From positions 159,295-223,294 of the forward strand of contig JAVZCO010000001.1 in the NCBI GenBank assembly GCA_038874355.1: DNA of 64,000 nt, written 5' to 3'. The notes below the pieces were generated by a model that worked only from the letters and a program-made list of their open reading frames with translations, was not told where the DNA came from and made no database searches. Both the position numbers and the translations under genes were made by a program. Shown here in pieces: positions 8,582 to 26,433 of this stretch (positions within the stretch are counted from its first letter, which is position 1; every line of letters begins with the position of its first letter). Origin of the DNA: Candidatus Pacearchaeota archaeon (GTDB lineage Archaea; Nanobdellota; Nanobdellia; Pacearchaeales; GW2011-AR1).

Positions 8582-9004
8582 TTAAGTAGGACAACTAATT
8601 ATATTTGGGCATTCTGTTAGAAGATTCATTAATTCGTCATCAATATTAACAAGTTGTTTATTTTCTATTTTTTTATTTTTACTCCAAGATTCACAAGTAA
8701 CTATAACAGATTTCATATTTCCTTCTTTTTCCCCTTCTTCTGGGGTTAATATTTTAAAATTTATTTTTCTTTCTTGTTTACACCATCCGTTTATGTTCCC
8801 TAAGGAATTACATGCAATTTCACATCCACTTTTTACATTATTTATGTTTTCGCTATAAAAAATATTTTTAAACCAATCACCTAAATTAAGAGTCCCTTTA
8901 CCTAAATATATTATAACAATGGCAACTATTACTAAAGCAAGAATTAATCCGATCACAATCCAAATCATATTTGCATCTGCTTTCTTTTTTCCTCTTTTTA
9001 TCAT
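8582..9004 (-). CDS. pilin-like secreted Cys-rich protein (class III signal peptide-like)
   Basis: N-terminus MIKRGKKKA/DANMIWIVIGLILALVIVAIVII (basic, K-A-D-A, then about 20 hydrophobic residues). Confidence 0.5.
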   Translation of the reverse strand: MIKRGKKKADANMIWIVIGLILALVIVAIVIIYLGKGTLNLGDWFKNIFYSENINNVKSGCEIACNSLGNINGWCKQERKINFKILTPEEGEKEGNMKSVIVTCESWSKNKKIENKQLVNIDDELMNLLTECPNIISCPT

Positions 9005-9093: not shown

Positions 9094-9939
9094 ATGAATC
9101 AAAAATTAAAAACAACTCTTTTTATTTTAACCTCTTTTATTACTGGTGTATATTTTGGAAATAATTTTTCTATTGATATTAAAATGAAACATAAATCAGA
9201 AGATATAACTAAGAAGGAAGATAGTAAAAGAAATAAATTAATAAATATTATTAAAGAAAATTATAATAATAAAAAAGAAGTTATTAAAACTTTTTCAGAA
9301 GAAAAAAAAGAAGAATTAATCAAAAAGTATGATAAAATTCCTTCTTATTTCCAAGAAGTATTTTTCAGTCCTAATGAAATCCCTAAAGGTTTCTATTTAA
9401 TAGGGTTTGATTACCTTAATCCAAAAGAAGTGGAAACAGAATTTGGAAAGAATACGAAACTTCCTCTTTATATAGAAGATATTATTGAAATAATTTACCA
9501 TAGTGAAAATGAAAATAGAGATATTGGAATCCGCGCATGGAGATATGATAATGATATAAGTCCATCAAAGGGTCTTGACGAGTATGGAGAATTTTTAAGT
9601 GGTGGATCAACTTTTTCTACACTACATTTTTTTAAATATAATAAAGATAAAGATGGGAATAATAAAAATAATATTTCAATAGCACTTCATGATAGAAGAT
9701 TAGAATCTTATTTAGTAAATATGTCTCTTATTTTAAAAGGAATTTCTTCATACCCGCCTGGAGTTGAAGGTGAAGAAGAAAAAAATAGAAGAAAGGATCT
9801 AGTAAAAGAAGTCCAAGAATACATACTTAATATAAAAAATTACTCAAAAAGATTAAATTTATATTTTCCTAACGGGAATAAAGCATATGATGAATTAGAA
9901 AAATATTTAGATGAAATTGGAAAATTAAAATTTGATTAA
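9094..9939 (+). CDS. hypothetical membrane-anchored protein
   Basis: Long ORF with an N-terminal hydrophobic helix and a consensus promoter. No family recognised. Confidence 0.45.
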   Translation: MNQKLKTTLFILTSFITGVYFGNNFSIDIKMKHKSEDITKKEDSKRNKLINIIKENYNNKKEVIKTFSEEKKEELIKKYDKIPSYFQEVFFSPNEIPKGFYLIGFDYLNPKEVETEFGKNTKLPLYIEDIIEIIYHSENENRDIGIRAWRYDNDISPSKGLDEYGEFLSGGSTFSTLHFFKYNKDKDGNNKNNISIALHDRRLESYLVNMSLILKGISSYPPGVEGEEEKNRRKDLVKEVQEYILNIKNYSKRLNLYFPNGNKAYDELEKYLDEIGKLKFD

Positions 9940-10001: not shown

Positions 10002-10589
10002 TTATAATTTTTTTATAATCTTTATATCTTTTATTTTTTCTATTCCGATAGGTTTTATCATTTTTTCTTTATATAAGTTGTATGGTAATGCTCTTATTAT
10101 CTTAGTTTCTTTGCCCCTTTTTTCTATAAACTCTTTTTCAATTTTTTCTATTTCTTTATTTTGTACTTCATAAGATATCAATAAGATCATTCTATAATTT
10201 TTCACTATAACTTCTATTTCTTTATTTTCTTGATTATAACTAACTTCTATTTCGTCATTCCTATATTTATTATTTAATTTATTAACATAATCTATATAAG
10301 AATATTTTTCTAATTGAATTTTAAAATTTTTTTCAAAAATATTTTCAAAATTTTCGTTTTCTTTTTCTTCTAAACTTATATTTTTTATTGTTTCTTCTAC
10401 TAAATCTGAAAGATAAAATTTTATCAAATTTTCTTCTTGTTTTATAAAATTATTTAAATCATAATCCTCTAAAATATTTCTTTCTATTTTATTTTTAGAA
10501 ATGATAAAAATAAATAACATGCTTAAAAATAATGTAATCACGAAAAAAACTATTAAAGTAACATTAATGTCTGCTTTTTTATTTTTCAT
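10002..10589 (-). CDS. pilin-like protein (class III signal peptide-like)
   Basis: MKNKKA/DINVTLIVFFVITLFLSMLFIFII. Overlaps the upstream gene by 11 nt, which suggests an operon. Confidence 0.55.
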   Translation of the reverse strand: MKNKKADINVTLIVFFVITLFLSMLFIFIISKNKIERNILEDYDLNNFIKQEENLIKFYLSDLVEETIKNISLEEKENENFENIFEKNFKIQLEKYSYIDYVNKLNNKYRNDEIEVSYNQENKEIEVIVKNYRMILLISYEVQNKEIEKIEKEFIEKRGKETKIIRALPYNLYKEKMIKPIGIEKIKDIKIIKKL

Positions 10590-11088
10590 TTTTTAAATAA
10601 AAACTTATTTTTATTTTTTCTTTTCCAATAATATATATTTCATTTTTCTTTTCTAAATCAGGATATTCAACTTTAGAATAATAATAACCAGAACCTCTAT
10701 AAGGAAGACTAGATTCGAGGTAAATTTTTTTATTGTCTTCTTCTCCTTTTTTTATTTCAATTTTATAATTATATTCTTTTAAATTTTCTTTTAATGTATT
10801 TTCTATAAACCTCTTTTTATCTTCATCTAATTTATCAGAAGAATAATATTCTTTTATTAAATCTTTAAAAACTAACTCTTCACTTTTATAATTTACTTTT
10901 AAATTTAATATAGAAATTATTTTTTCATAATTTAAAGATTCTGTTTTTAATTTTTCTATATTTTCTTCTACATTCTTTAAAGATAAAGCAATAGTAACAA
11001 TAGTGAAAATAATTATGATAAAAAATATGATGATGAATGCTATAAACCATGTTAAAGTTTCTCCTATTTGTGCTTTTTTATTTTTCAT
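10579..11088 (-). CDS. pilin-like protein (class III signal peptide-like)
   Basis: MKNKKA/QIGETLTWFIAFIIIFFIIIIF. ATGA overlap with the upstream gene. Confidence 0.55.
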   Translation of the reverse strand: MKNKKAQIGETLTWFIAFIIIFFIIIIFTIVTIALSLKNVEENIEKLKTESLNYEKIISILNLKVNYKSEELVFKDLIKEYYSSDKLDEDKKRFIENTLKENLKEYNYKIEIKKGEEDNKKIYLESSLPYRGSGYYYSKVEYPDLEKKNEIYIIGKEKIKISFYLKNEK

Positions 11089-11573
11089 TTTATATCGCTT
11101 AGTAAAATTCTTTTTCCTTTAGCATTAGAAGATGTTAATATTATTAAATTATATAATTTATTTTCTTTGGATACATTTATTTCGCTTTTTACGCAAATTG
11201 GATAATTAATAGCATTTGCTTCTTCTTTTATTTCGCATTGTATAAACATAGATTCTGGTCCTAATATAATTTTTTTATTTTCTTGTACGACTTCGATTTT
11301 AGCACTAAAAAGTTCGCTGTTTAAAGTATTATTATTCAAATTACAAATTTCTAAAATATCTTTTTTTATTTCTTCTTCGCTCTTAGAAAAATTGAAATAA
11401 TTATTTTGCAAACAATGAGAAATTTTTTTATTTAATATTTTACTATCTAAACTCCTATAATCAATTTCTTTATTTGTAAAAATATAAATATTACTTATAA
11501 CTCCAACTATAACAATTATCCATATAAAAAACCACCATATTGTCATTATTTTTTCTATAGCAGTTTTATTCAT
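11085..11573 (-). CDS. hypothetical protein with an N-terminal hydrophobic anchor, possibly a minor pilin
   Basis: MNKTAIEKIMTIWWFFIWIIVIVGVISNIYIF. No clear K-[AG] cleavage motif. Sits in the same operon. Confidence 0.45.
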   Translation of the reverse strand: MNKTAIEKIMTIWWFFIWIIVIVGVISNIYIFTNKEIDYRSLDSKILNKKISHCLQNNYFNFSKSEEEIKKDILEICNLNNNTLNSELFSAKIEVVQENKKIILGPESMFIQCEIKEEANAINYPICVKSEINVSKENKLYNLIILTSSNAKGKRILLSDIK

Positions 11574-11590: not shown

Positions 11591-11998
11591 TTATTTTTTA
11601 TCATAACTTTCTATTTTTAATATAAGATGATTATCTTCAAAGTATGTATTAATCTTAACATTATTAAAAAAATAATATGAATAATATGTTTGTGGATTTA
11701 AAGAAAAATAAACTATTCCTTTTTCATTGTTTATTTTTATTAAATTTTCTTTTTTTAATATACCTTTTTCAATTTCTTTTTCATATTTTTTATATAAATA
11801 ACTTAAATCAAAATAAATTGTTGTATTGGGTTCTGCCGAATTAATTAACAAAGCAATTTCTTTTGCATAATATTGTTCATCTATTAATTTACCATTTGAA
11901 GAATTATAAACAAAAATTAATAACGTGACAAAAATTATCATATTCAAAATTAAAAAGATAATATTTTCTTCTAATAATTGTTGACCTTTTTTATTCAT
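11591..11998 (-). CDS. pilin-like protein (class III signal peptide-like)
   Basis: MNKKG/QQLLEENIIFLILNMIIFVTLLIFV. Confidence 0.5.
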   Translation of the reverse strand: MNKKGQQLLEENIIFLILNMIIFVTLLIFVYNSSNGKLIDEQYYAKEIALLINSAEPNTTIYFDLSYLYKKYEKEIEKGILKKENLIKINNEKGIVYFSLNPQTYYSYYFFNNVKINTYFEDNHLILKIESYDKK

Positions 11999-12315: not shown

Positions 12316-13524
12316 TTAAGGAATGCTTTCTATATTTCCAGAGCAATAAGTATTTATTGCTTGTGGTTCATATTTTACAACTCTTACAACACTGCAACCA
12401 CTTCTTGCATTTTTTGAAGATGAAGAAACGTCTCCGCAATAACCCATTGATACATGCCTATTATATGCTACATTAACTTGTTGAGCTCCTGCTATTACTC
12501 CTCCTAAAACAAAAGCTATTTTTAAACAATAAGGATTTGTTAAACAAGATTTAGTAAAACTAATTGTATTTCTAGGAGATAAAACAAAAGAACCTCCATA
12601 CATTAATCCTCCTAATTTAGCTAAATTCATTAAAGAATCTGCTACTTTAGGAGCACTAATCTGCATAAAAACAATTGCCAATTGTTCTCCATTCCATTCT
12701 GGTAATTCTCCACCAAAAGAGTATTTAATTTGATCTATTGCTAAAGAGGATTCTTTTTCTGAATTAGTGTCTTCTGATAATTCTGATACATACAAAAAAG
12801 AATTATTTATTATATTGTTTTTAGTTTCATTTGAAACAAATTCTATTTCAACCTGCTCTTCCTCTTCTTTAGTTATCTTTTCTATATCTTTTTTGTAATT
12901 TATATTATTTAAAACATCAAATGATATTTTTGCGAAATCTTCTCCTGCGGAAATATCATTTCCTAACATATAGGTATAATAAGAAACGCTCTTTCCAGGG
13001 ACAGCATGTGTTGCCATGTATTCTTGTACATTCACTTTTTTTATTTCATCCAAACTTATTCTTTCATCTATTGCGATTCTCGAACAAATAATACATGAAG
13101 GATACACCAATCCAAAACCATATCTTGTTGCAATAAACTGAGAAAATAAATCTAATCTTCCTTGCCCCATCATATTCCAGCATTCTAAAATTTCTTGAGA
13201 AATAACTTTTTCAATTCCTTCTTTATCTTTAACAATAACTTTTTCTACTCCTTTTTCTCCAGTAAATTCTTCACAATTACCAAAAACACTATTTGTAATA
13301 CAAACTTTTTTTTCTTTACATTGTAAAGGGGCATAAGATTTGCCAGCATCTAATACAGGAAGGCTAGCAATAGTTCCCCTCATTATAACACTTTGTTTAC
13401 ATGCTTCTCTATCTGTTCTTTGACTTAAGTTCAAATTTATAATAAAGAATAAAAGAATACCAAAAGCTAAGATTAATAAAATTATTGCTACTAATGTAGA
13501 CAAAGTAATTCCTCTTTTATTCAT
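12316..13524 (-). CDS. large pilin-like protein (class III signal peptide-like), Cys-rich
   Basis: MNKRG/ITLSTLVAIILLILAFGILLFFI. 402 aa. Confidence 0.55.
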   Translation of the reverse strand: MNKRGITLSTLVAIILLILAFGILLFFIINLNLSQRTDREACKQSVIMRGTIASLPVLDAGKSYAPLQCKEKKVCITNSVFGNCEEFTGEKGVEKVIVKDKEGIEKVISQEILECWNMMGQGRLDLFSQFIATRYGFGLVYPSCIICSRIAIDERISLDEIKKVNVQEYMATHAVPGKSVSYYTYMLGNDISAGEDFAKISFDVLNNINYKKDIEKITKEEEEQVEIEFVSNETKNNIINNSFLYVSELSEDTNSEKESSLAIDQIKYSFGGELPEWNGEQLAIVFMQISAPKVADSLMNLAKLGGLMYGGSFVLSPRNTISFTKSCLTNPYCLKIAFVLGGVIAGAQQVNVAYNRHVSMGYCGDVSSSSKNARSGCSVVRVVKYEPQAINTYCSGNIESIP

Positions 13525-13716: not shown

Positions 13717-14268
13717 TTATTTTTTATTTATTAATAAATTATTAAAAAATCTTTGAAGTTCTGATGTTGGACCTGTATCACAAACAATAGAAATATGCCC
13801 TTCCTTATTTTTATTTATTGTGCAGGGTGTTGATTGATAAATTGCAATAACATTCTCTTCATAATTTTTATTTTTTATTACTAAGTAGTCATCTACAACT
13901 TTACATACCGCTTTAGATTCGTCTAAATAACCATTTAAAGCATTCCAAGGGTTCTTTACAGCAGAAGAATGTGGAGCCAAACATAAACAATATTTTCCAT
14001 TGCAAATATTTGTTGTATTAAAATAAAAATAATAATCTTTTGGTGCGCTAATAATAAAACTTATTGATTGATTTTTTTCTTTATATACTTTAATCTTCCC
14101 CTCTATAATTTCTAAAGTAGACTTTGCTTGTTGAATTTTTGTATTCTGTATAAACATATTAAAAATTAAAATTGATAAAATAACAAGAAAAACTATACAT
14201 ATAATTGCAATTATTATTTTAAGAGTTTCTTCTGGCAATAATGTAGAACTTGCTTTTTTATTTTTCAT
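13717..14268 (-). CDS. pilin-like protein (class III signal peptide-like), Cys-rich
   Basis: MKNKKA/SSTLLPEETLKIIIAIICIVFLVILSILIF. Confidence 0.5.
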   Translation of the reverse strand: MKNKKASSTLLPEETLKIIIAIICIVFLVILSILIFNMFIQNTKIQQAKSTLEIIEGKIKVYKEKNQSISFIISAPKDYYFYFNTTNICNGKYCLCLAPHSSAVKNPWNALNGYLDESKAVCKVVDDYLVIKNKNYEENVIAIYQSTPCTINKNKEGHISIVCDTGPTSELQRFFNNLLINKK

Positions 14269-14615: not shown

Positions 14616-15956
14616 ATGAATTTTAATAAAAAAATAAATAAATGGATAGCAACTTTGGGATTAGCAACAACATTTTTATTTCCTAATCCTGCTGCTTATC
14701 CTCAACAAAAAAGATATTTGCATTTAGAAAAACCAATTTTAAGAAAAGCAGAAATAAAAGACTCTATTTTTAATAAAGTTAAAGGAACTCTAGAGTTAAA
14801 ATTAGATTATAATCCAGAAAATAAAGAAATTTGTTTTGAAATCTATACTCCTGATTGGAATAAAAAGAAAGAAAATGTTGCTGATTTGGACAAAGAATAC
14901 ATAAATATAAGAGACGATTCTAAATTTTATATGATATGTAAAAGAGAAAATTTCGAATTTGATTATATAACATCAGAAGGTTATTTTATAGAATTAGATA
15001 AGAATAGAAACTCTTTTGGGGAATGGAAAAAATTAATAGATTTCGAAAAAAATCCTGATGCAAAATTAAAAATTCTTATAAGAAAAAAAGCATTATCTAA
15101 TTTCATAAAAGAAACAAAAATTCCTAATTTTATACCTATAATAACAGAAATTTTGGAATATTCTGAACTAAAAAAAGAAGTTGAATTAGAAAAGATAGCA
15201 TATACTATAGGAAAGGATTATGAAGTCAGAGAAATTGAAATAGGAACAGCAGAAGGATTATTTGCTACAAGAAATACTGCTGTAAAGATAAATATAAAAT
15301 TAAGAACAAATCCAGAAACAGAGAAAAAAACTATTTTATTTTATGATATAAAAATGGGCTCTTCAGGAAGTCCAATAGCTTCTTTATCTGCAAATGGAGA
15401 AATTAGTTTTATTGTTCCGGGTGAAAGAGAAAGAAAAGTACAAGAGCAAACACTTGATGATAAAATATTAGCAACTTTGACTGATTATGAAGATAAAGAA
15501 GAATGGCGTAAGTATTTGGGAAGAATTCCATTATCCATAAAAAAATATTTTTTTCAAAAAGAAGATATACCAAATAATTATAGATTAATAAGTTTGTGGT
15601 ATTCTTCTGGACTGGGAATGAAAAGATATTCTGAATTAAAAGAAATTTTTAATAAAGAATTTGATGTGATTATGATTTATGAAGATATAAAAAATAATAA
15701 AAAGGAAATGTCAAAAGAATCTATTTTTATGGTTAGAATGATAAAATATTATAAAGATTTAAAAGAATCAACTTTTTATGAAGATGTTGATATTAGAGAT
15801 GAAATATATGAAAATAAAGAAGATGGAATTGTTATAGAACTTTTAAATAGTTGGGGTAAAGATGTTGAACACATAAAAGTTTCTCCAGAATATTTGAAAA
15901 GATTAAGATTAGAAGAAAATAAAGAGAAATACTCTATAAAGAGAAAATTAGATTAA
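14616..15956 (+). CDS. secreted hypothetical protein
   Basis: Sec-type signal-like N-terminus KWIATLGLATTFLFPNPAAYPQQ. 446 aa. No family recognised. Confidence 0.55.
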   Translation: MNFNKKINKWIATLGLATTFLFPNPAAYPQQKRYLHLEKPILRKAEIKDSIFNKVKGTLELKLDYNPENKEICFEIYTPDWNKKKENVADLDKEYINIRDDSKFYMICKRENFEFDYITSEGYFIELDKNRNSFGEWKKLIDFEKNPDAKLKILIRKKALSNFIKETKIPNFIPIITEILEYSELKKEVELEKIAYTIGKDYEVREIEIGTAEGLFATRNTAVKINIKLRTNPETEKKTILFYDIKMGSSGSPIASLSANGEISFIVPGERERKVQEQTLDDKILATLTDYEDKEEWRKYLGRIPLSIKKYFFQKEDIPNNYRLISLWYSSGLGMKRYSELKEIFNKEFDVIMIYEDIKNNKKEMSKESIFMVRMIKYYKDLKESTFYEDVDIRDEIYENKEDGIVIELLNSWGKDVEHIKVSPEYLKRLRLEENKEKYSIKRKLD

Positions 15957-15961: not shown

Positions 15962-16558
15962 TTAAGTTATATCATTTTTTTTATTTCTTAAAATTCTATC
16001 ATAGACAGCTTTTGCATAAGATATTCTTTTTTCAGTAGAGCAATAATCAGGATGGCACCTTTCAAATTTATCTTGAAAGGAAATTGTAGCATCTCTAACA
16101 TTATTTTGGTATTTTAAATGATAATAAGCTTCTTTTTCAGTTCCTAGAAGTTCTTTTACTAAAAAGTTTAATTGACATAATAATACTTCCTTCTCTATTT
16201 CATTTGTTCTTTGACCTTCTGGAGTTTTTGTTTTCGGACAATCTTTTAATAATGCATCTTTTCTCTCGTTGTGCCATTGTGCTAATCCAATAGAAGTACA
16301 TTTATTATTTTTACAATCCCCTTCTAAAAAAGGGTCTAAATTTGATTCTTGGATTAAATTTCCTATTATACCCGCTATTTGTTCATCTGTTAAGGTTATA
16401 TTCTTTATATTCTTAAAATATTCATAAATGAGATCTACTTTATTTTCATAGTTAATATTTACACGCGTTGTTTCCACAGGATGCTCTAAAAAGTTTTTTA
16501 TATCGTTTTGTAAACTATATTTTTCTCCTTCTCTTGTTTTTTCTTCATTCTCTCCCAT
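15962..16558 (-). CDS. stand-alone lysozyme-like domain protein (phage-tail-lysozyme / lytic-transglycosylase-like), no signal peptide
   Basis: DEQIAGIIGNLIQESNLDPF...SIGLAQWHNERKDAL...CQLNFLVKEL...ISFQDKFERC...RISYAKAVY. Paralog of the central domain of ORF 16902-18956. Its own TATA-like box lies about 25 nt upstream. Confidence 0.7.
   Translation of the reverse strand: MGENEEKTREGEKYSLQNDIKNFLEHPVETTRVNINYENKVDLIYEYFKNIKNITLTDEQIAGIIGNLIQESNLDPFLEGDCKNNKCTSIGLAQWHNERKDALLKDCPKTKTPEGQRTNEIEKEVLLCQLNFLVKELLGTEKEAYYHLKYQNNVRDATISFQDKFERCHPDYCSTEKRISYAKAVYDRILRNKKNDIT
16197..16388. repeat. 192-nt block identical to 17701-17892
   Basis: Exact identity by eye across the lysozyme-like catalytic core, flanked by strongly diverged sequence. 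Confidence 0.85.
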
Positions 16559-16567: not shown

Positions 16568-16901
16568 ATAGATTTAACTTATATTTTTATGATTGGCCCA
16601 AACTTTAGTAATAAAGAATTTTCTATTTCTAGATCCTTTTAATAAAGATGGCTTATTTTTAATAATTTATAAAGATACTGAAAAAGAACAGATTTATAAT
16701 AAACATTCTATTATAAAAATAATTAAATATTCTAAAGAAATTGATGAAAAATTTATAATAGATGATATTGAAGATTTTGGAAGTAGTGTATTAATAAATA
16801 AAAAAGAAAGAATGATAGTAGAATTGATTAATCGAGAAGAAGAAATAATAACAAAAAATTATTTAAAAAAATTTGATCTAGAAAAAATTAGATAATATAA
16901 A

Positions 16902-18956
16902 TTAAGTTATTTTATAAACAGCTCTTAATTTCTTTATACTTTCGCTACCAAAATTTACAGGTTTTTTATAACCAGAATCATGAATAAATAAAACTTTTTT
17001 TGTTTTTGGATCGTAACCATTCAAGATAACAATATGATAACCGCTATTAGAAACCTCACTTCTAAAAACACCTATATAACCTGATTTTAATATTTCATTA
17101 ATTTGTTCTTTATTGTTTGTATTTATTTCTCCATTTATCAAATAATCATAAATTTTTACCCCTCCATTTTTTAATATCTCTTTTTCTAATAGAGGAACAG
17201 AATCCCTTATCTCTATATTAATTCCAGCTTCTCTTAAAATATTACTCACAAATCTAGCGCAAACAAAATCTTTACAATTCCTTGCTTTATCCTTACAACC
17301 ATATCTTATAGTATCTTTACCAATATAACTATTCGCTATTCTAAGAATATCTCTACTCTTTCCTTCTCCTATATTAGAAGCAAGATAATCGTAAGAAGAG
17401 GGATCAATTTTATAGTTTCTATCCTGAAAAAAAGTGAATAGATTTAATAAAACATTTCTTATTCCACTTATTTCTCTTTCTTTGTGTCTTATTATATTAT
17501 AGAAAGCTTCTGCATATTCTATTCTTTTATTTGTGTTACAAAGTTTCGAATTACATTTTTCATATTCATTTTGGAATAGAATTGTTATATCTCTAACATT
17601 CTTCAATTTTTCCATTCTCTTTAAAACTCTACTTTTATATGGTTCTTTATTTAACTCTTTATTCAAAAAATCAAGTTGACAAAAGATCATTTTTAATTTT
17701 ATTTCATTTGTTCTTTGACCTTCTGGAGTTTTTGTTTTCGGACAATCTTTTAATAATGCATCTTTTCTCTCGTTGTGCCATTGTGCTAATCCAATAGAAG
17801 TACATTTATTATTTTTACAATCCCCTTCTAAAAAAGGGTCTAAATTTGATTCTTGGATTAAATTTCCTATTATACCCGCTATTTGTTCATCTTCATATCC
17901 CAAATCTTTTAAGTAGTAGTAAATAATTAAAGTTTCTTCTTTCAAAACTGTATTTTCTTTAAGTGAAGAAATAAAATTTTTTAAAAAATTTATATAATAT
18001 TCTACTTCACTTATTTCTTTTTCTGTTTCTCCTTCTCTTGTTTTTTCTTCATTCTCTCCCATACAAAATTGGTATTGCCATTTTCTATAAATCATTTTTA
18101 TTTTTTGTGAATATTCATGCCCTATACTCTTTAAAGTTTCTTCTGTTTCTCGATTATGATAATTTTTTCCTGTTTTATATATAGAAAGAATACAAGTGAA
18201 TTTTTCTTCTTCTGTTATTGAATTATAACATTCTTCATATTTTTCATTTTTGTTGTCAAATGCATTCCTTAATTCTTCTCCTAAATTTTTTATTTCTTCT
18301 TCATTCGTATTAAAATTTTTTTCATTGATTATGGAAATTAAAAGTGCTTTAAAAGATTCTTTATTCATAATTCTTGGATATTCTTTAACAATATTTTCTA
18401 CTAAAAACTTTAAAGATTCATTTTCGTAATATTTTTCTATTTCTGAAGGAGATTCTCTTATAATGTATCTATCATCACAAATAAAAGTTATCAATGGTCT
18501 ACATAATTTATTATCTAAAGAAAAATAAGAATTATGTATTCTTCTTAAAATATCTACTTCTGTATAATCGAGTTTATTGTTATAAGATAAATAATAATTA
18601 TCTATTTTTATTTGTTTTTGATTTGAAAGATATCCTACATATAATTCTCTAAGAAACTTTCCACCTGCTTTATAAATTTTATTATCTTTTATATAAAAAT
18701 CTGTTTTTATTTCTTTATTATTATCATAGATATAAATAAAATCTAACTTAATATTTCCAACATAATCCTCTCCAATACAAATTCCTAATTTTGCATATTC
18801 ATCTTTCGTAACATTTATTAAATGATCACTTTCGTTATAAGGTAAATTTTTAAAAAAATCTATTATTTGTGGTCTTGTTAAAAGTATTATAACAAAAACA
18901 ATTACTAAAATTATTAAAACTAAATAAATAGTTTTTTCCATTGATTGCTGAACCAT
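16902..18956 (-). CDS. membrane-anchored two-domain peptidoglycan hydrolase-like protein (lysozyme-like domain plus NlpC/P60- or CHAP-like cysteine peptidase domain)
   Basis: Signal-anchor IYLVLIILVIVFVIILL. Central GIIGNLIQES...GLAQW...R motif set. C-terminal ANSYIGKD...DFVCARFVSNILREAGINI...GYIGVFRS...GYHIVILNGY...FIHDSG (Cys/His pattern). Confidence 0.8.
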   Translation of the reverse strand: MVQQSMEKTIYLVLIILVIVFVIILLTRPQIIDFFKNLPYNESDHLINVTKDEYAKLGICIGEDYVGNIKLDFIYIYDNNKEIKTDFYIKDNKIYKAGGKFLRELYVGYLSNQKQIKIDNYYLSYNNKLDYTEVDILRRIHNSYFSLDNKLCRPLITFICDDRYIIRESPSEIEKYYENESLKFLVENIVKEYPRIMNKESFKALLISIINEKNFNTNEEEIKNLGEELRNAFDNKNEKYEECYNSITEEEKFTCILSIYKTGKNYHNRETEETLKSIGHEYSQKIKMIYRKWQYQFCMGENEEKTREGETEKEISEVEYYINFLKNFISSLKENTVLKEETLIIYYYLKDLGYEDEQIAGIIGNLIQESNLDPFLEGDCKNNKCTSIGLAQWHNERKDALLKDCPKTKTPEGQRTNEIKLKMIFCQLDFLNKELNKEPYKSRVLKRMEKLKNVRDITILFQNEYEKCNSKLCNTNKRIEYAEAFYNIIRHKEREISGIRNVLLNLFTFFQDRNYKIDPSSYDYLASNIGEGKSRDILRIANSYIGKDTIRYGCKDKARNCKDFVCARFVSNILREAGINIEIRDSVPLLEKEILKNGGVKIYDYLINGEINTNNKEQINEILKSGYIGVFRSEVSNSGYHIVILNGYDPKTKKVLFIHDSGYKKPVNFGSESIKKLRAVYKIT
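17701..17892. repeat. 192-nt block identical to 16197-16388
   Basis: See the partner block. Confidence 0.85.
18027..18071. repeat. 45-nt block identical to 16523-16567
   Basis: See the partner block. Confidence 0.85.
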
Positions 18957-18959: not shown

Positions 18960-19118
18960 TTAACCAAATCTAAATAAATTTTTTAAATTTATAACCATCC
19001 CTTTTAGTTTTCCGCTTAATATTCCATAAGCAACAAGTACTAAAAACAAAAATATTAAAATTAAGATTATCTTTCCTAAAAAATCCATCTCTAAATCTGC
19101 TTTTTTTATTTTTTTCAT
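18960..19118 (-). CDS. 52-aa pilin-like mini-protein (start revised to an internal ATG)
   Basis: MKKIKKA/DLEMDFLGKIILILIFLFLVLVAYGIL. The track's longer 73-aa version would overlap the neighbouring small ORF. Lies 3 nt upstream of the hydrolase gene. Confidence 0.45.
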   Translation of the reverse strand: MKKIKKADLEMDFLGKIILILIFLFLVLVAYGILSGKLKGMVINLKNLFRFG

Positions 19119-19240
19119 TTTATAATATTTGAAAATATTTTTTTTATTGCAAAAAAAGCGATCCCAAATAAGATTATCCATAATAATATAATCAATATTT
19201 TTTTTAATCCTTGACTTTCTTCTTCTGCTCTTTTTTTCAT
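19115..19240 (-). CDS. 41-aa single-TM mini-protein (below the ORF-track cutoff)
   Basis: My own translation: MKKRAEEESQGLKKILIILLWIILFGIAFFAIKKIFSNIIK. Its stop overlaps the next ATG (ATGA). A TATA-like box lies about 28 nt upstream. Confidence 0.35.
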   Translation of the reverse strand: MKKRAEEESQGLKKILIILLWIILFGIAFFAIKKIFSNIIK

Positions 19241-19357: not shown

Positions 19358-21526
19358 TTATCCTAAATTCATCGCTGAAAGTGCAAATGAAGACAATAAT
19401 GATAAAATTAATATCGCCATAAAAGCTATAATAAAATACATTATTATTCCTCTTTTTAAATTCTTTCCAGTTTCATTAACAATTCTTAACTTATCATATC
19501 CATTTTCTATTGTTACTAAAGAATATGACAAAATAAAAGTAATTTCAATAATATATATTCCTATTACTATTTGTAAAAAATAAGGTGGAATCATAGCTTG
19601 TAAATTAAATATACTTAAGATATTTCCAAACCCTCCAATTGCTTCAGAAACTTCTTCGGCTCCTATGCCAGAAATTGAAATATTTAATTTTGTTAATATA
19701 TTTGTTATCATTCCTGTTAGCCCAATAATAATTCCTGCTAATAATGGTGCTAAAAATGTCATATTACTTCTCATGTCACTTGTTATTTCTGCTAATAAAT
19801 CCTTTAATCTTTCTTCTATTTTTTTTACATTTTTTGTATACTCACTTATAGACATTAATGAAGAGGCTGCTATTTTTAATCCTTTTTTTACAGATTCTAT
19901 TAAAATCATCATAGATGTTGCGATTAAAGCTGATGGATAATAAATTATAGCACCCCTTCTTTTATTAAATATGGCTTCTTCTAAATTCATACCTAACTGA
20001 TGCATATTTTGATTTACTATATTAAAAAATCCTTCTGTTGTTTGTCCTTTAACTGATTTAGCAACGTGTGAAAAAGCAATTTCTGCCGGCATTCCATCTC
20101 CTAATCTATTACCTAACTGGAATAAAGAAGAAGCAAATTCATCTTCTAATTTTTTACTTTTCTCTTTTGCAATAATTAAATCTTTTGTTTTTCTATTATA
20201 AGCAAAAGAAAAAAATATCCCTATTGATAAAGGAATAAATAAACTTAAAATTAAAGCGATAATACCAAATGGTCCTGTTTTTGTTTTCCCAACATTTTTA
20301 AAATCAAAAATCTTTAGATCTTCAAATCCAACTAACCTAAAACCAATTTCTCTAAAAGTGTAATCATTTTTTAAACCTAAATTATTAATAAAATTAGTTT
20401 GAAAAATAAATGGTAAAAAACCAATCATTAACAGAGGAAGAATAAGGAAAAAAGAAATTAGAAAAGGTTTTTTATCTATAAATTTTTTATAATCTTTATT
20501 TAATTCTAAAAGTTCTGTTTCTCCATAGCCACCTGGTCTTTTATAAAGAATTTCATTAGACATAAAAAAAACAAAAAAAGGAACTATAACATTAAAAATA
20601 AAAAACACATGATACCATTTTATTATTCCTGCTAACATAGTAGAAGCTAAAGGTAGCAAAGCAATTGCTAATGTAGGAAGTATTATACCTAACATATAAA
20701 TATTTGTTAAAGGACTTCTAATATCTCTACTATACTTCAACATTTTATCATAAATACCATCTAAAACAACTTGTAGAGCTTTTTCTAAAATAGTAATTCT
20801 TCTTGTTTCTTCTATCTCATATAGACTTGATTCAATTAAATGAAAAGCTTCTACAAATTCTATATTATCATCTTTCCAGGTTTCTAAATAAGCTTCTAAA
20901 CTTTCCTTAAGATTAGAATATTTTCCTATTTCAACATCCCAAAAAACTTTTTTTAAATCTAAAGATAAAGGAGGTTGTAAATGTTTAGCTGCGAAAGAAA
21001 TTGCTCTTTCTAAATTACTTGTATGTTTCATATAAGCAATTATGTACAAAATACATGGAACCATTTGAGAAGAAGTTTTTAATCTTCTTTGATTTGCTAA
21101 TCTATTTGGAGTTGTATAAAAATAATAAAACAAAAATATAGAAAAAAGTAAAAAGAAAAATAATAAAATAAATGGAAAGACATCTGTTAATAAAAAAATC
21201 AAAATGCTTAATAAAGTACCGAAAAAAAAAGTTAAAAATAAAGAGACAACAGATAAAGAAGCAACTTGTTCTGGTGTTATGTCTAATCTTGCTTTTTCTA
21301 TTTCTTTTTTTATTTTTTCATAATCTTTTTTTGAAGGTTTAATTTTGACACTATTACCAATTCCTTTACAAAGTTTCTCAAACCAATTTAATTCATAATA
21401 CATCTCTTCTTTAAATTTTTTGTAATCTCTACTAAAATCCTTATAAGGTATAATATCTGATCTTATCTCTTTTTCTATTTTTGCTCCATATTTTTTTAAT
21501 ATATCCTCTACCTTTATTTTTTCCAT
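19358..21526 (-). CDS. polytopic pilus/archaellum platform protein (FlaJ/TadC/PilC-like)
   Basis: About 720 aa with many TM helices arranged in two halves, immediately downstream of the secretion ATPase. Start revised from GTG at 21532 to ATG at 21526, which is preceded by the SD-like AGAGGTGA. Confidence 0.65.
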   Translation of the reverse strand: MEKIKVEDILKKYGAKIEKEIRSDIIPYKDFSRDYKKFKEEMYYELNWFEKLCKGIGNSVKIKPSKKDYEKIKKEIEKARLDITPEQVASLSVVSLFLTFFFGTLLSILIFLLTDVFPFILLFFFLLFSIFLFYYFYTTPNRLANQRRLKTSSQMVPCILYIIAYMKHTSNLERAISFAAKHLQPPLSLDLKKVFWDVEIGKYSNLKESLEAYLETWKDDNIEFVEAFHLIESSLYEIEETRRITILEKALQVVLDGIYDKMLKYSRDIRSPLTNIYMLGIILPTLAIALLPLASTMLAGIIKWYHVFFIFNVIVPFFVFFMSNEILYKRPGGYGETELLELNKDYKKFIDKKPFLISFFLILPLLMIGFLPFIFQTNFINNLGLKNDYTFREIGFRLVGFEDLKIFDFKNVGKTKTGPFGIIALILSLFIPLSIGIFFSFAYNRKTKDLIIAKEKSKKLEDEFASSLFQLGNRLGDGMPAEIAFSHVAKSVKGQTTEGFFNIVNQNMHQLGMNLEEAIFNKRRGAIIYYPSALIATSMMILIESVKKGLKIAASSLMSISEYTKNVKKIEERLKDLLAEITSDMRSNMTFLAPLLAGIIIGLTGMITNILTKLNISISGIGAEEVSEAIGGFGNILSIFNLQAMIPPYFLQIVIGIYIIEITFILSYSLVTIENGYDKLRIVNETGKNLKRGIIMYFIIAFMAILILSLLSSFALSAMNLG

Positions 21527-21554
21527 TTTCACCTCTTTTTTTATTTAATTTTAT

Positions 21555-23837
21555 TTATTTTTTCATTTTTTTAATTTCTTTTTTCATCCATTCTTTAACT
21601 AAAGGTAAGACTCTTTTTGATTCTGGTAATCCTATTTCTTCTTTTATTTTTTCTGAAATTTCATGAAAAATTGTATTACATTTAAAATTAAATTCTGCTT
21701 CTAATAAATCTTGTATAGAAGTTTTTTTATACATATTTAATATTTCTTCTTTTATTTTTGCCCTTAATAAAATATTATCATAAACCGCATCCCAATTTCC
21801 TGCCCATCCCTTAACATTAGCCGCTATACTTTTTATTATTTCTGAATCACCATTTATTAATTCGTCTGTAGCTTGTAATTCGTCTTTATCTGGGTTATAT
21901 TTAAATAAATCTACAAAACCTTTTTCTTCTAACGGATCTTTAATCCAATGTTTTCTAACCTCACTTATTTGTGTTATTCTTCTCCAAGACCTTATTCCAG
22001 AAGGAGATTTAATTAAATTAGCCACAACTATTAAATCCGTTGCTTTAAAACTTGTTACAGGAACTTGTAGATCATTAACTACTCTATCAAAAACTCCATA
22101 AGGAGAAGCTCCATGAATTGTTCCTGCAACTACATTTGCTAAAGCACCAACTCTCATAGCTTCATATAATGCTTTTGCTTCTATGCTTCTTACCTCTCCA
22201 ACTATTAAACAAGAATCTCCTAATCTTAAACTAGTTCTTATTCCTTCATCTGCTGCAACCTCATTACTAGATTGTAATAAAGCTGATCTAACTTTCATTC
22301 TTAAAATATCGTACCCTAATTTTCTTAATGAATCTACAGGTAATTCTAAAGTATCTTCAACAACAATAATTCTGTATTTAGGTACTATTTCAAGCATTAA
22401 ACTACCTAACAAAGAAGTTTTTCCTGCGCTTCTAGTTCCTGCTACAAGTAAAGTTCTTGCCCCATCAATACAAAAACTTAATAATCCGGCTGATAAAGAA
22501 TTTATCATTTTGTTTTTCATAAATAATGTTAAAGTCCATGGTTTGTCTCTATGCCTTCTTATAGAATATGCTAATCCATATGGTGATAAAGGTTGTTGTA
22601 TAACAGCTATTCTAGCTCTAGTTTCTCCTAAAAGTAATTCTGTATCTAATATAGGATTTGCTTCATCTAATGGTCTGCCAGATAGCATTCTAAATTTTGC
22701 TGCCCAGCTATCTGCATCTTCTTGGCTAGGAATTATATTTGTTAAACATTCGTCATATTCTTGATGCCTAACAAAAATATTATTTTGAGATATAGGAGCA
22801 TTTAAAACAATATCTTGCAAATTTTCATCTTGTAAAAGAACTTCTATTAAACCAAAACCTATAGTATGTCTTATTAATATCTTCGCTAATTTATTTAATT
22901 CCAGATAACTTAAATTTATATTTTTAGAATTAGCTAATTCCTGAATTAAATCTTTAGCAATATTAAAAAAAGTTTGTCTTGTTCTTTCTAAATCAATAAA
23001 TTCTTCTGCTTTTGGTTGATGCTCAATTAAAACGTTTCTAGCTAAATTTAAAAGCATTTGATGATCTTCATTAAGAATATATTCTGGAGGTGTTATATGA
23101 TAAATGTATTTTGGTTCGTTTATTTTTTTTAATATTGTAACATGAGCTTTATCTTTTTCTTCTCCTATTTCATATTCATCTATTATTTCTGCATCTTCTG
23201 GAAGTTTTAAGATTAGTCTTGTAAATGTAAAATTTGGTATTATTTCTGGTCTAAAGAATCTTTTATATATCTCCCTATTATTAAAAGAATATTCTTCTAT
23301 ATATTTTTGTGCCTCTTTTATTAAATTTGTTCCTTCTAAAAGAAGAGTTATTTTTTCTAATAATCTTATATAATTCATCAAACAAAATTTACATTGATAT
23401 GTTTTTTCTAAATTATTTCTTTGTTCTGACAGGATTTTTTTAATAAAAATATAAGCTCCTATTGGATCTTGTTTTAATAAATTAATAAAATTATTAACTA
23501 CATCATATCTTTTTCCTAAACATTGCTGACAATTAAGAACTAATCTTCCTGGAGATAAAATCCTTTCTTGTTTTACTAAATGTATATAGATTCTTGCTAT
23601 CTCATTTAATAAGGATATTTGATTAAAATCATAAACATAGTTTCTTTGTTGAACAAAAACTATTCTTGAAATTTTTGGATTTTCTATTAATAAACTTATT
23701 GCTTTTTCCATAGACTCTTTATTTTCAGAAATATTTGGAATAAGAGAAGAACCCATATAGTTTACATAAGCTACATCTATTCCAGTCTCTCTTACAATTT
23801 CATAAGAATATAACGGAGTACCTTTTTTAAATAACAT
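21555..23837 (-). CDS. type II/IV secretion-family ATPase (FlaI/PilB/VirB11-like)
   Basis: Walker A GTRSAGKTS, Asp box VVEDTLEL, Walker B CLIVGEVR, His box AGTIHGASP. Start revised from TTG at 23852 to ATG at 23837, which has a TATA-like box about 25 nt upstream. Confidence 0.9.
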   Translation of the reverse strand: MLFKKGTPLYSYEIVRETGIDVAYVNYMGSSLIPNISENKESMEKAISLLIENPKISRIVFVQQRNYVYDFNQISLLNEIARIYIHLVKQERILSPGRLVLNCQQCLGKRYDVVNNFINLLKQDPIGAYIFIKKILSEQRNNLEKTYQCKFCLMNYIRLLEKITLLLEGTNLIKEAQKYIEEYSFNNREIYKRFFRPEIIPNFTFTRLILKLPEDAEIIDEYEIGEEKDKAHVTILKKINEPKYIYHITPPEYILNEDHQMLLNLARNVLIEHQPKAEEFIDLERTRQTFFNIAKDLIQELANSKNINLSYLELNKLAKILIRHTIGFGLIEVLLQDENLQDIVLNAPISQNNIFVRHQEYDECLTNIIPSQEDADSWAAKFRMLSGRPLDEANPILDTELLLGETRARIAVIQQPLSPYGLAYSIRRHRDKPWTLTLFMKNKMINSLSAGLLSFCIDGARTLLVAGTRSAGKTSLLGSLMLEIVPKYRIIVVEDTLELPVDSLRKLGYDILRMKVRSALLQSSNEVAADEGIRTSLRLGDSCLIVGEVRSIEAKALYEAMRVGALANVVAGTIHGASPYGVFDRVVNDLQVPVTSFKATDLIVVANLIKSPSGIRSWRRITQISEVRKHWIKDPLEEKGFVDLFKYNPDKDELQATDELINGDSEIIKSIAANVKGWAGNWDAVYDNILLRAKIKEEILNMYKKTSIQDLLEAEFNFKCNTIFHEISEKIKEEIGLPESKRVLPLVKEWMKKEIKKMKK

Positions 23838-24068
23838 CTTAATTTTTAACAATTTTTTTATAAAAAAATAAGAAAATTGAGTATTAAATATCTTTCTAAA
23901 TTTATACTTATTAGATAAAATTTTTATATTTAAGACATCTTATATTTAAAAAAATTTTATCATCTTATAAATTGAAATTTATTTTGATTAAATAAAATGA
24001 AAAGAATTTAAAAGATAAATATTTTAAACCCATTTGTATATTATACTTTTATAAAAGGGGATTAAAAA

Positions 24069-24393: not shown

Positions 24394-25101
24394 ATGACAA
24401 TAATAGATCAAATAAAAAAAATGAGAGAAAATGGGATGACAGAAATGGATATTATAAAAAAATTACAAGAAGCGGGTTATTCTCCATTAGAAATAAATCA
24501 AGCTATAGAGCAATCTAAAATAAAAGCAGCAATTTCTGATTTAAATTCAGATTTACCTCAAGAAGATAATTTTGATACAGAATTGATAAAAAATATGCAA
24601 CAAAGTATAATGGAGCAATCAAATGAAAATAATTTACCTCTTTTACCACAACCGGATCAGCAATTACAAATTTCAGAAAATATCCCAGAAGAACAATATG
24701 AACAACAATATCCTATAGAATCTATACAACAACAAGAATACTATCCTCCTCAAAACTATTATCAAGAGCAATATCCTATTTACCAGCCATCTTATAACGA
24801 AAATGTTAATGAAATAATAGATCAGATAGTAGAGGAAAAAATAAACAAAACCAGAAAAAAAGTTATAGAATTAAATTCTTTTAAAATACTAGTTGAAAAA
24901 AAAATAAGAAATATAGATGTAAGGTTAAGAAAAATAGAAAATTTTATTCAGGAATTAGAAATAAAAATTCTTGGCAAAGTAAGTAGTTATGGGGAAAATT
25001 TACAAGACATCAAAAAAGAAATGGAAATGATGCAAGATTCTTTCAGTAGTGTTTTGGAAAGTATCAAAAATTCTTTAGGTAAGGAAAAGAAGAAGAAATA
25101 G
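24394..25101 (+). CDS. hypothetical protein: small helical N-domain, Q/P/Y-rich linker, C-terminal coiled coil
   Basis: N-terminus QIKKMRENGMTEMDIIKKLQEAGYSPLEINQAIEQ, then a Q-rich low-complexity stretch, then a coiled coil. 2-nt gap to the upstream gene. Confidence 0.55.
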   Translation: MTIIDQIKKMRENGMTEMDIIKKLQEAGYSPLEINQAIEQSKIKAAISDLNSDLPQEDNFDTELIKNMQQSIMEQSNENNLPLLPQPDQQLQISENIPEEQYEQQYPIESIQQQEYYPPQNYYQEQYPIYQPSYNENVNEIIDQIVEEKINKTRKKVIELNSFKILVEKKIRNIDVRLRKIENFIQELEIKILGKVSSYGENLQDIKKEMEMMQDSFSSVLESIKNSLGKEKKKK

Positions 25102-25102: not shown

Positions 25103-25579
25103 TTATTTTTTTGTTAAAATCCAAGAGACTACCACTACTACTATAACTAAAATTATAAAATCAAAAATTTTTGTATTTTCACTTATTGTTGATTTAAGTT
25201 TATCTAAAAACATAAAATTAGAAAAGACCATATTTGCTGAAATTAAAAAAATTATTATTAAAACTATAACTATAAACCAAACAATAGATGGTTTAAAAAC
25301 AATTTCTGCTTTTTGTTGACTCATTCCTATAACTAAGAGTATAAAAAATATACAGATAACAAAAACAACTACCCATGGAGTTATAGTTTGAATATATTCT
25401 TTCGGCTTTGTTGTTGTTGAAAATATAATTGATATGATAAAACTAATTAAAAGATGGGCAAACTTATTTTCTCCAACAATTTTTATTTTTTCTAATATAA
25501 GAAAGATTATTATAAAAACAAATAGAAACATAAATAAAGGCATAAAATATTCAGCAAAGGAAATTTCAAATACCATCAT
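25103..25579 (-). CDS. 4-TM membrane protein, paralog family member 1
   Basis: Shares the pattern F..(L/M)P(L/F)...F....IL......G/F.E.K....L with the next two genes. Confidence 0.5.
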   Translation of the reverse strand: MMVFEISFAEYFMPLFMFLFVFIIIFLILEKIKIVGENKFAHLLISFIISIIFSTTTKPKEYIQTITPWVVVFVICIFFILLVIGMSQQKAEIVFKPSIVWFIVIVLIIIFLISANMVFSNFMFLDKLKSTISENTKIFDFIILVIVVVVVSWILTKK

Positions 25580-25636
25580 ATAAGATAATTTTTTTTTATT
25601 TAAAAGTTTTTTGTTTTCAAAAATATCTTAAATTAA

Positions 25637-25698
25637 TTGTAAGGCAACATTCCTCTTATTGTTCTTTTCATTATTTTTTCTGCACTAGAAGGAAAAGA
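25637..25698 (-). pseudogene. intergenic fragment of the ribosomal protein L13 gene
   Basis: 38 nt identical, and about 58 of 62 nt overall, to 60000-60060 inside rpl13. Would encode ...EKIMKRTIRGMLPY. Confidence 0.6.
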
Positions 25699-25704
25699 AC
25701 ATTT

Positions 25705-26223
25705 TTATTTTTCATCTTTTTTTCTAATAACAAGAACAATAGCAAAAATTAATATACCAGCAACAAGAGTAACAGCTCCATATCTTTCCCACCAAGATTC
25801 AAATTCAGAATAACCCATATAACCTGTATCTCTAAAAGCATTTATTATAACAATTAGAAATATTACACCACCTATAATTAAAAATAAAGATTTTTGCCAT
25901 TTGCTCCCTGTTTCAACAAAAGCTCCCAATAAAATTAAAGCAACTATTAAAACTCCAAGGCCTTTTCCTAAGTAAGGAAATAATTTAGAAAAAAAGATTG
26001 GAACTGCATCATATAACAAAGATAATAAACCTATAGCTAAAGATATAATTAAAGCAGCTCCTTTATTTTCTTTAAATAAGGACAAATTTGATAATATAGT
26101 GTATACTAAAGCAAATATTAATAAAAATGGCAAAACATAAGAGAAAAATCCTAAATCTGCTAAATCATTTAAAACATCTGCAATAGATGTGCTACCTGCC
26201 CATTGCAATAAGATTCCTAACAT
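25705..26223 (-). CDS. 4-TM membrane protein, paralog family member 2
   Basis: FFSYVLPFLLIFALVYTILSNLSLFKENKGAALIISLAIGLL. Confidence 0.55.
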   Translation of the reverse strand: MLGILLQWAGSTSIADVLNDLADLGFFSYVLPFLLIFALVYTILSNLSLFKENKGAALIISLAIGLLSLLYDAVPIFFSKLFPYLGKGLGVLIVALILLGAFVETGSKWQKSLFLIIGGVIFLIVIINAFRDTGYMGYSEFESWWERYGAVTLVAGILIFAIVLVIRKKDEK

Positions 26224-26433
26224 ATTCCAAATAATATTTTTTAATTTAAATATCTTTCGTTTATTAGTTTTGTAAATTTAAGAATTTATTTTTCATTTAT
26301 TTTTTTAATCTTATTTTATTAATAAATTAGTAATTATCTTTAATTTAAAGTATTAAAGGAATAAATTTATATTCTATTTTTTCTCAAGAAAGATTTTCTA
26401 TTTTAAATTTTATACCAAGAAATGTTTTTTATT

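Follow-up and report, generated by a model that had tools for sequence, protein, structure and literature searches.

A gene on the minus strand of a Candidatus Pacearchaeota contig (JAVZCO010000001.1, positions 159,295 to 223,294; this stretch of 64,000 nucleotides is referred to here as the window) encodes, at 16902-18956, a 684-aa protein that consists of four parts: an anchor helix, an N-domain of about 270 aa, a muramidase domain of the phi29 gp13 type and a CHAP-like C-terminal domain. Its gene lies directly behind those of a type IV pilus-like machine. Based on sequence, structure models and analogy with known systems, we propose with moderate confidence that the protein is a membrane-tethered extracellular bifunctional murein hydrolase, which would be produced along with the type IV pilus machinery and would serve to pierce, where the cells touch, the wall of a bacterial partner or prey. 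Its extracellular topology, its enzymatic activity, its bacterial target and its functional coupling to the pilus are what we infer from the data laid out below. An enzyme of this kind encoded within the operon of a machine is a known design; new are the divergent CHAP-like family, the N-domain, and a conserved slot in an archaeal pilus operon whose modules are swapped.

The open reading frame (ORF) begins with ATG and was found exactly as described in a first-pass annotation of the window. A stop-free run of 684 codons would arise by chance with a probability of about 2e-26 at the base composition of the window (about 23% G+C), and Pfam supports the assignment of the gene as a hydrolase. The N-terminal signal anchor that had been postulated corresponds to the single hydrophobic segment of the protein, residues 9-27 (18876-18932; this and all other parts of the protein lie on the minus strand), as determined by hydropathy. 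That annotation had divided the protein into three parts, of which the anchor, the lysozyme and the C-terminal parts were recovered, while a conserved domain at residues 28-298 had been overlooked. The protein contains 15 cysteines, a number that would fit seven disulfide pairs plus a free Cys566, and the pair C554/C561 is gained or lost jointly across homologues. Taken together, the cysteine number and this co-occurrence are compatible with an extracytoplasmic protein having a free catalytic thiol, and the hydrolase is thus presumably exposed on the outside of the cell.

The muramidase domain spans residues 344-488 (17493-17927) and matches the Pfam family PF18013 (Phage_lysozyme2) with E=1.2e-26 and 94 bits (gathering cut-off 28.2), covering positions 5-139 of the 140 of the profile. 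In a phmmer alignment with phi29 gp13 (3csr) the motif 'GNLIQES' stands opposite 'GNMQSES', which places Glu369 (codon 17850-17852), the glutamate of the QES motif singled out in the first-pass annotation, on Glu45, the proposed catalytic residue of gp13 (PMC10394673). The QES motif is also present in a paralogue encoded nearby (see below) and in all three lysozyme-bearing homologues. The domain is approximately 35% identical to the tail lysins of Bacillus and Staphylococcus myoviruses, and among its 190 plasmid matches 179 are on conjugative plasmids, with the matches coming mostly from Lactobacillales and Enterococcus. An initial reading of the segment as lysozyme-like was borne out by the phage-lysozyme profile, while its assignment to the SLT lytic-transglycosylase type was not, since the type is that of gp13 and PrgK, the hydrolase of the conjugative plasmid pCF10; no SLT match was found in the 684-aa protein with Pfam. 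The homologous domain of PrgK is a muramidase and not a lytic transglycosylase (PMC11323569), and by analogy we predict that the domain in the window acts as a muramidase.

The C-terminal domain, which extends from about residue 520 to 684 (16905-17399), gave nothing above threshold in Pfam, NCBIfam, PHROGs or the PDB by sequence, with the single sequence as well as with a profile of eight sequences. Neither CHAP (PF05257) nor NLPC_P60 (PF00877) matched the window protein even at E<=10, and the only sub-threshold match was to Peptidase_C39_2 (E=0.22 in the window protein and 0.0013-0.015 in three homologues). PDB sequence matches to Mdm4, spackle and the proteasome were rejected as chance matches. 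Seven homologues of the domain were recovered when 1.84 billion representative proteins were scanned exhaustively with HMMER, and an AlphaFold2 (AF2) model built with these seven reached a mean predicted local distance difference test score (pLDDT) of 85.5 and a predicted template modelling score (pTM) of 0.85. Foldseek searches of the PDB with this model returned the CHAP domains of LysK, LysGH15, LysIME-EF1, Ly7917 and PlyC together with other papain-like enzymes (probability up to 1.00, TM-scores of 0.50-0.58), and the viral library BFVD yielded 15 matches at E<=1e-3, most of them CHAP lysins or tail proteins of phages (best E=4e-6, TM-score up to 0.62). The sequence identity of the domain to its structural CHAP matches is 8-21%. 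These models support a CHAP-like papain fold that by sequence falls outside the Pfam families CHAP and NLPC_P60; the NlpC/P60- or CHAP-type peptidase of the first-pass annotation is therefore retained as a papain-like CHAP fold and withdrawn as a member of either profile family. As far as the structure model can tell, this is a divergent CHAP-like family that was previously undetected and is new here, and all of its members with readable contigs are located in archaeal-type pilus or pilin-like gene clusters.

The predicted active site of this domain is formed by Cys566 (17259-17261), His641 (17034-17036) and Asp660 (16977-16979), an order of Cys, His and acidic residue that we take to be that of CHAP domains. 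In the AF2 model Cys566 (model residue 47) lies at the N-terminus of helix 46-57, His641 (model residue 122) opens strand 121-130, and Asp660 (model residue 141) is found just past strand 135-140. In an hhalign comparison the three residues fall on the Cys, His and Glu of a genuine NlpC/CHAP domain, in a match that is weak (E=0.066). In the homologue alignment every domain copy has His641 and Asp660, and seven of eight have Cys566, so that the Cys/His pair proposed earlier has its counterparts in the family, and the positions of Glu369 and of Cys566, His641 and Asp660 are kept in homologues down to 33-40% identity. The sole copy without an equivalent of Cys566 is the first of two in the homologue P0008, a protein of 524 aa in which a long charged, Glu/Lys-rich N-terminal region precedes two tandem CHAP-like domains. 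Copy 1 has SGNEF in place of VCAKF, and hence no catalytic Cys, and copy 2 keeps it; judged from these sequences, P0008 may pair a degenerate binding copy with an active one.

Between the anchor and the muramidase domain lies the conserved N-domain (residues 28-298; 18063-18875), which could be aligned in six homologues. It carries six cysteines, and C160, C243, C255, C298, W293 and Q294 are invariant. The AF2 model (pLDDT 76.8) consists of a beta-hairpin part followed by a helical bundle. No family match was obtained in Pfam or PHROG and no Foldseek match in the PDB (best E=0.41). A derivation of the N-domain from a degenerate SLT domain, suggested by motifs such as 'SIYNSG' and by weak internal HMM cross-matches, was dropped because its AF2 model has no structural match. 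A word-indexed protein search with the N-domain profile recovered the homologue P0004 alone, a scan of GTDB genomes with N-domain patterns yielded nothing, and a metagenome scan for the family returned just one contig, L003, which was already known.

The hydrolase gene is preceded by genes of a pilus-like machine, all on the minus strand. The unit opens with a gene (21555-23852) that encodes a pilus assembly ATPase of 765 aa (T2SSE, E=6e-11 in Pfam), which also matches the NCBIfam families FlaI (E=9.5e-40) and TadA (E=3e-35), both far below the family cut-offs. It is followed by a gene (19358-21532) for a polytopic membrane protein of 724 aa with approximately 8-9 hydrophobic or transmembrane segments, which stands behind the ATPase in almost every related locus whose sequence reaches that far and which is, from its position and topology, presumed to be the pilus platform. 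After an AT-rich spacer of 117 nt come two mini-ORFs, each with one transmembrane helix: mini-ORF 1 (19115-19240; 41 aa, beginning MKKRA) and mini-ORF 2 (18960-19118; 52 aa from the ATG at 19118, beginning MKKIKKA|DL). The stop of the former overlaps the start of the latter (ATGA), and the hydrolase starts 3 nt past the stop of mini-ORF 2, in agreement with the earlier placement of the gene 3 nt behind two mini-ORFs and just after the ATPase/platform pair. At the position of mini-ORF 1 there is a 42-aa ORF, 67% identical, in the related locus L036, and ORFs of 42-47 aa are found in L001 and L002; relatives of mini-ORF 2 in the same three loci are 50-56% identical over 48 aa. Mini-ORF 2 gave a weak match to DUF7554. 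The [KR][KR][AG] N-terminus of both resembles that of the pilin-like genes of the locus, and from this feature it is plausible that the mini-ORF products are themselves pilin-like. Marks of a type IV pilus in the locus are the T2SSE ATPase, an A24 prepilin peptidase and class-III-like N-termini.

A hydrolase gene occupies the same slot in five further distinct loci, which are constant in the slot itself, in the anchor, kept as an N-terminal hydrophobic segment by all six slot proteins, and usually in the N-domain, and variable in the modules that follow. In L001 the slot protein combines N-domain and muramidase with an Amidase_2 domain (PF01510, E=4.9e-29), and in L002, whose protein is identical in L003 and L004, it comprises N-domain and muramidase only; in both loci the ATPase is 81% and the platform 73% identical to those of the window. 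The contig of L036, which is without ATPase and platform and retains the mini-ORFs and the downstream neighbours, encodes an N-domain joined to a CHAP-like domain. L037 (ATPase 77%, platform 67%) has a shortened N-domain with a CHAP-like domain, and L040 (ATPase 69% over a 71-aa fragment, platform 68%) a transmembrane segment with a CHAP-like domain only. At least part of the ATPase-platform pair is thus kept upstream of the slot in L001, L002, L037 and L040. The variable modules (muramidase, Amidase_2, CHAP-like) are all of murein-cleaving types, and this is the strongest indirect argument for murein as the substrate. The hydrolases share 34-37% identity, against 81% for the ATPase and 73% for the platform, a divergence as expected, on sequence grounds, of a surface protein that meets a partner. 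In a further locus, L038, the CHAP-like domain is carried by P0007, whose N-terminus (MKINNKKG|AVF...) is of the canonical pilin type. P0007 is the last gene of a 16-gene pilin-like run (L038, 1445-11761), nearly all members of which have M-K-x-K-K-[GA] and a hydrophobic helix, and the run adjoins the RPA, RadA and PolD genes of another DPANN-type archaeon.

The archaeal informational genes claimed for the window are indeed there, namely PolD DP1 and DP2, Cdc6/Orc1 and the archaeal-type ribosomal proteins S9 and S13 (S16 and S18 in archaeal/eukaryotic naming). The closest named relatives of the ATPase, at 44-72% identity, are from 29 metagenome-assembled genomes (MAGs) labelled Pacearchaeota, Woesearchaeota or Nanoarchaeota, which identifies the organism as a DPANN archaeon of that group.

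The hydrolase can be compared with several known systems. PrgK of pCF10 is composed of a transmembrane segment, LytM, a gp13-like muramidase and CHAP, in this order, and TraG of pIP501 of SLT and CHAP (PMC11323569); like the window protein, these conjugation hydrolases combine a transmembrane anchor, a glycosidase and a CHAP/NlpC-type peptidase inside the operon of a transport machine. Likewise, a conjugative plasmid of Lactiplantibacillus plantarum encodes a 'phage tail tip lysozyme' of 389 aa, in which an NlpC/CHAP/Amidase_5 domain comes after Phage_lysozyme2, within the operon of a type IV secretion system (T4SS) with a VirB4-type DUF87 ATPase, a VirD4-like and a TrbL-family protein, and the window protein is collinear with it over lysozyme domain, linker and catalytic-Cys motif (E=2e-13). 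However, the conjugation enzymes open the producer's own murein, possibly also the recipient's, for a T4SS with VirB4 and VirD4, whereas the producer in the window is an archaeon, itself expected to lack murein, and its machine is type IV pilus-like with prepilin peptidase and pilins rather than a conjugative T4SS; neither VirB4 nor VirD4 was found among the scanned neighbours of the hydrolase. Moreover, the window protein lacks the LytM domain of PrgK, has the novel N-domain of about 270 aa instead, and its peptidase is too divergent for the CHAP/NlpC profiles. Phage tail lysins (phi29 gp13 and those of Bacillus and Staphylococcus myoviruses) share with it PF18013, the same catalytic Glu, the pairing of glycosidase and peptidase and, as proposed here, the local piercing of a wall from outside. 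In contrast to the window protein, which is chromosomal, membrane-anchored and of native codon usage, gp13 is a virion protein with a LytM metallopeptidase. The CHAP endolysins LysK (CHAPK), LysGH15 and PlyC provide the best structural matches of the C-terminal domain, which nevertheless lacks a PF05257 profile match.

Murein-degrading enzymes in DPANN archaea, which the first-pass annotation had mentioned, have been reported repeatedly. Large extracellular murein transglycosylase proteins of the SLT/GH23 type (fam00969) were described in Pace- and Woesearchaeota (Castelle 2021, PMC8204110; Vigneron 2022, PMC9723730), the same kind of organism, with the same proposed purpose of binding or degrading bacterial walls and as a hint at bacterial hosts. 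They differ from the window protein in belonging to another glycosidase family and in sizes of up to 3,000 aa, and pili are absent from the texts of both papers. More recently, modular peptidoglycan hydrolases were found in about 5% of archaeal genomes, prominently in Nanoarchaeota (Strock et al. 2025, PMC12352652), and these resemble our case in their bacterial-type murein-cleaving domains, patchy spread, domain shuffling and proposed anti-bacterial role. However, that survey demanded a Pfam wall-binding domain beside the catalytic one, so that the window protein, which has none, would go uncounted, and the enzymes described were secreted weapons, in contrast to the membrane-anchored operon member found here. 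No paper was found in the literature searched that ties a murein hydrolase to an archaeal pilus operon or that brings together DPANN and a CHAP domain, which is not proof of absence. The placement in an archaeal pilus operon thus appears to be undescribed, as had been supposed; calling the system as a whole not described was too strong, given the design of PrgK and TraG.

In the mechanism we propose, the N-terminal helix would anchor the hydrolase in the archaeal membrane, with the Cys-rich N-domain possibly serving as a stalk or docking module, while the gp13-type domain would act as a muramidase that cuts the glycan strands via Glu369 and the CHAP-like domain would cut peptide stems or cross-links via Cys566, His641 and Asp660. 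Being translated with two tiny pilin-like proteins directly behind ATPase and platform, the enzyme would be made with the type IV pilus machine and stay near it. The pilus would bind a bacterium, perhaps pulling the cells together, and the enzyme would perforate the bacterial wall locally, allowing the archaeon to dock on, feed on or kill the bacterium. In this respect the PrgK/TraG-type hydrolases that serve the conjugation channels of Gram-positive bacteria and the tail lysins that serve phages may be regarded as analogues.

Several observations weigh against this mechanism. No cell-wall-binding domain was recognized in the 684-aa protein by the Pfam scan, and the membrane tether would have to span the archaeon's own surface layer. 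That the archaeon itself has no murein is an expectation, and the genes examined are those within 64 kb of a contig of 575,629 bp. The 724-aa protein did not match T2SSF even at E<=10 and had no other match in Pfam or NCBIfam. None of 29 more distant pilus loci of named MAGs contained a homologue of the lysozyme, the N-domain or the CHAP-like domain in flanks of up to 10 kb (shorter at several contig ends), indicating that the linkage of hydrolase and pilus is specific to a narrow clade and not general for these pili. Furthermore, the CHAP and LytM domains of PrgK had no hydrolytic activity in vitro (PMC11323569), so that a conserved triad is no guarantee of catalysis, and the DPANN archaea cultivated so far all have archaeal hosts (PMC11291902).

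Alternatively, the anchor might be cleaved or the protein shed, and the enzyme would then act at a distance as a bacteriolysin or feeding enzyme, lysing nearby bacteria for competition or for the scavenging of amino sugars and peptides, with its operon position reflecting no more than a common control of genes for the cell surface. Killing of bacteria by archaeal peptidoglycan hydrolases has been demonstrated, and genes of this kind are prominent in Nanoarchaeota (PMC12352652). Woesearchaeota that carry murein-degrading genes have been proposed to be 'vampiristic' (PMC9723730), and fast divergence and module swapping would also fit an arms race with targets. However, the tight coupling to pilus genes and the N-terminal anchor are kept by six of six slot members, a free enzyme would have no wall-binding domain to hold it on its target, and the CHAP-like protein of L038 has a pilin-like N-terminus, all of which make a shed enzyme unlikely in our view. 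Quite improbable is a substrate other than murein, for instance pseudomurein if the host is a methanogen, a glycosylated S-layer, a chitin-like material or the envelope of the archaeon itself; the enzyme would then aid passage of the pilus or remodelling. Pseudomurein endoisopeptidases are Cys-His-Asp enzymes, which counts in favour of such a substrate. Yet the module swapped into the closest homologues is Amidase_2, an N-acetylmuramoyl-L-alanine amidase, and to our knowledge the bond that gives this enzyme its name occurs in murein and not in pseudomurein; in addition, both catalytic domains have their nearest relatives among phage lysins and conjugation hydrolases that act on Gram-positive murein. 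To this must be added, on the side of a different substrate, that lysozyme-like and papain-like folds are able to attack bonds of other kinds, as PMC12352652 likewise cautions, and the archaeal hosts of the cultivated DPANN mentioned above (PMC11291902).

It is also conceivable, with a very low probability, that the role of one or both catalytic domains is chiefly structural or regulatory and lies in wall binding, dimerization or pilus docking, as reported for CHAP and LytM in PrgK, where activity was confined to the gp13-like domain and CHAP down-regulated it and formed disulfide dimers via the catalytic Cys (PMC11323569). The Cys-less first CHAP-like copy of P0008 points in this direction, while the conservation of the Glu369, Cys566, His641 and Asp660 positions at 33-40% identity does not, and slot members that consist of a transmembrane segment and a CHAP-like domain only argue for a function of that domain on its own. 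Finally, the hydrolase segment could be a fragment of bacterial or phage DNA, either mis-assembled or acquired recently, that is unrelated to the archaeon, as might be thought from a lysozyme domain family that is typical of phage tails and plasmids and from a 189-nt perfect repeat within the region. The hydrolase gene, however, has the G+C content (0.234) and the G+C content at third codon positions (GC3, 0.118) of PolD, Cdc6, ATPase and platform, no composition step occurs across the window, no phage structural genes flank the hydrolase, and independent assemblies of six or more other samples show the same order of genes. Composition and recurring synteny rule out the mis-assembled bacterial or phage fragment about which a caution had been raised at the outset, and as a whole this explanation is extremely improbable.

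A broader version of the proposed wall-breaching mechanism, which we regard as speculative and rather doubtful, is that the hydrolase is a physical part of the archaeal type IV pilus apparatus, with pilus and enzyme forming a wall-drilling device for attaching to and parasitizing bacteria. The N-terminal helix of the hydrolase is homologous to helices of the family members P0009 and P0010, which bear a [KR][KR][GA] prepilin-like motif, and in one lineage the CHAP-like domain is borne by P0007, itself a pilin-like subunit. If this version were true, it would imply a cross-domain episymbiosis of Pace-/Woesearchaeota-type DPANN, never yet shown in culture, with swappable muramidase, Amidase_2 and CHAP-like modules tuned to the wall chemistry of the host and with the signal-less paralogue as a donor for gene conversion. 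Bacterial hosts of the abundant Pace- and Woesearchaeota have so far been argued only from murein-degrading genes (PMC8204110, PMC9723730). The locus described here ties a murein-type hydrolase to a specific contact organelle, in a slot that is conserved while its modules are swapped, and offers a concrete candidate mechanism for the attachment of an archaeon to a bacterium or for predation. The N-domain together with the slot position provides a marker for finding more cases, and the enzymes could have practical interest as antibacterial lysins.

The paralogue of the muramidase domain is encoded by a gene on the same strand (15962-16558) and comprises 198 aa (PF18013, E=8.8e-25, 88 bits) without a hydrophobic segment or signal. 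It is 57% identical at the amino acid level to residues 299-497 of the main protein, and the identity is distributed unevenly. A tract of 189 nt that covers the catalytic core (codons 356-418 of the main gene) is 100% identical in DNA, with strongly diverged flanks, and the first 12 codons together with 9 nt upstream are also 100% identical in DNA between the paralogue (15962-16558) and the corresponding part of the main gene (17466-18074), whereas the remaining segments, between and beyond these tracts, reach merely 20-60% amino acid identity. On sequence grounds this mosaic pattern looks like recent gene conversion between old paralogues. The paralogue is absent from L001 and L002. The gap between it and the hydrolase gene is exactly filled on the opposite strand by a 100-codon ORF with a TTG start (16593-16895, plus strand), whose length at the AT content of the window would be expected by chance at about 2e-4 per start. 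Neither Pfam nor PHROGs gave a match for this ORF, and the related loci contain no counterpart of it; it may encode a genuine small cytoplasmic protein brought in with the paralogue.

Downstream of the hydrolase and its paralogue the locus continues with a convergent gene (14616-15956, plus strand) for a 446-aa protein with a hydrophobic, signal-peptide-like N-terminus. Relatives of 421-539 aa at 30-39% identity are located in L001 (12032-13345), L002 (11462-12799), L036 (1880-3145) and L040 (3546-5165), always directly after the hydrolase gene. Profile searches in Pfam, NCBIfam, PHROG and the PDB gave no match for this neighbour, for which roles as partner, adhesin or inhibitor are conceivable.

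Seven genes on the minus strand between 8582 and 14268 (13717-14268, 12316-13524, 11591-11998, 11085-11573, 10579-11088, 10002-10589 and 8582-9004) encode putative pilins. These have no family match and are so named for their M-x-K-[KR]-[GA] N-termini, which we take to be archaeal prepilin class III signals, followed by one hydrophobic helix. Counterparts of six of the seven are collinear in L001, occur with one gene inverted in L002 and are partly present in L040. They are followed by the gene for a type IV prepilin peptidase of 281 aa (7314-8159, minus strand; Peptidase_A24, E=3.2e-12, above the cut-off, and a weak match to Arc_PepC), and the same gene is found in the same place in L001 and L002. 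A 281-aa ORF between pilin-like genes and prepilin peptidase (9094-9939, plus strand) has no Pfam match and may have been inserted locally, since L001 and L002 show no gene of that orientation at this place.

Upstream of the ATPase gene, three paralogous membrane proteins of about 160 aa without a prepilin-like N-terminus (25103-26925, minus strand) and a 235-aa protein (24394-25101, plus strand) are encoded. None of them has a Pfam match, and they are kept with the ATPase in many Woese- and Pacearchaeota loci, far more widely than the hydrolase, so they may be core parts of the machine. The pilus ATPase gene itself is interrupted by an intein in several related Nanoarchaeota and Woesearchaeota MAGs, recognized in L027 (10001-13831) and L032 (9977-14359) by Intein_splicing (E=2e-29 and 5e-31, respectively) together with a LAGLIDADG homing-endonuclease domain, and in L029 and L031 by ORF length; the ATPase gene of the window is without an intein. 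Elsewhere in the window, a tRNA of 106 nt (2771-2876, plus strand) was detected by Rfam and not by ARAGORN, and its length suggests that it contains an intron.

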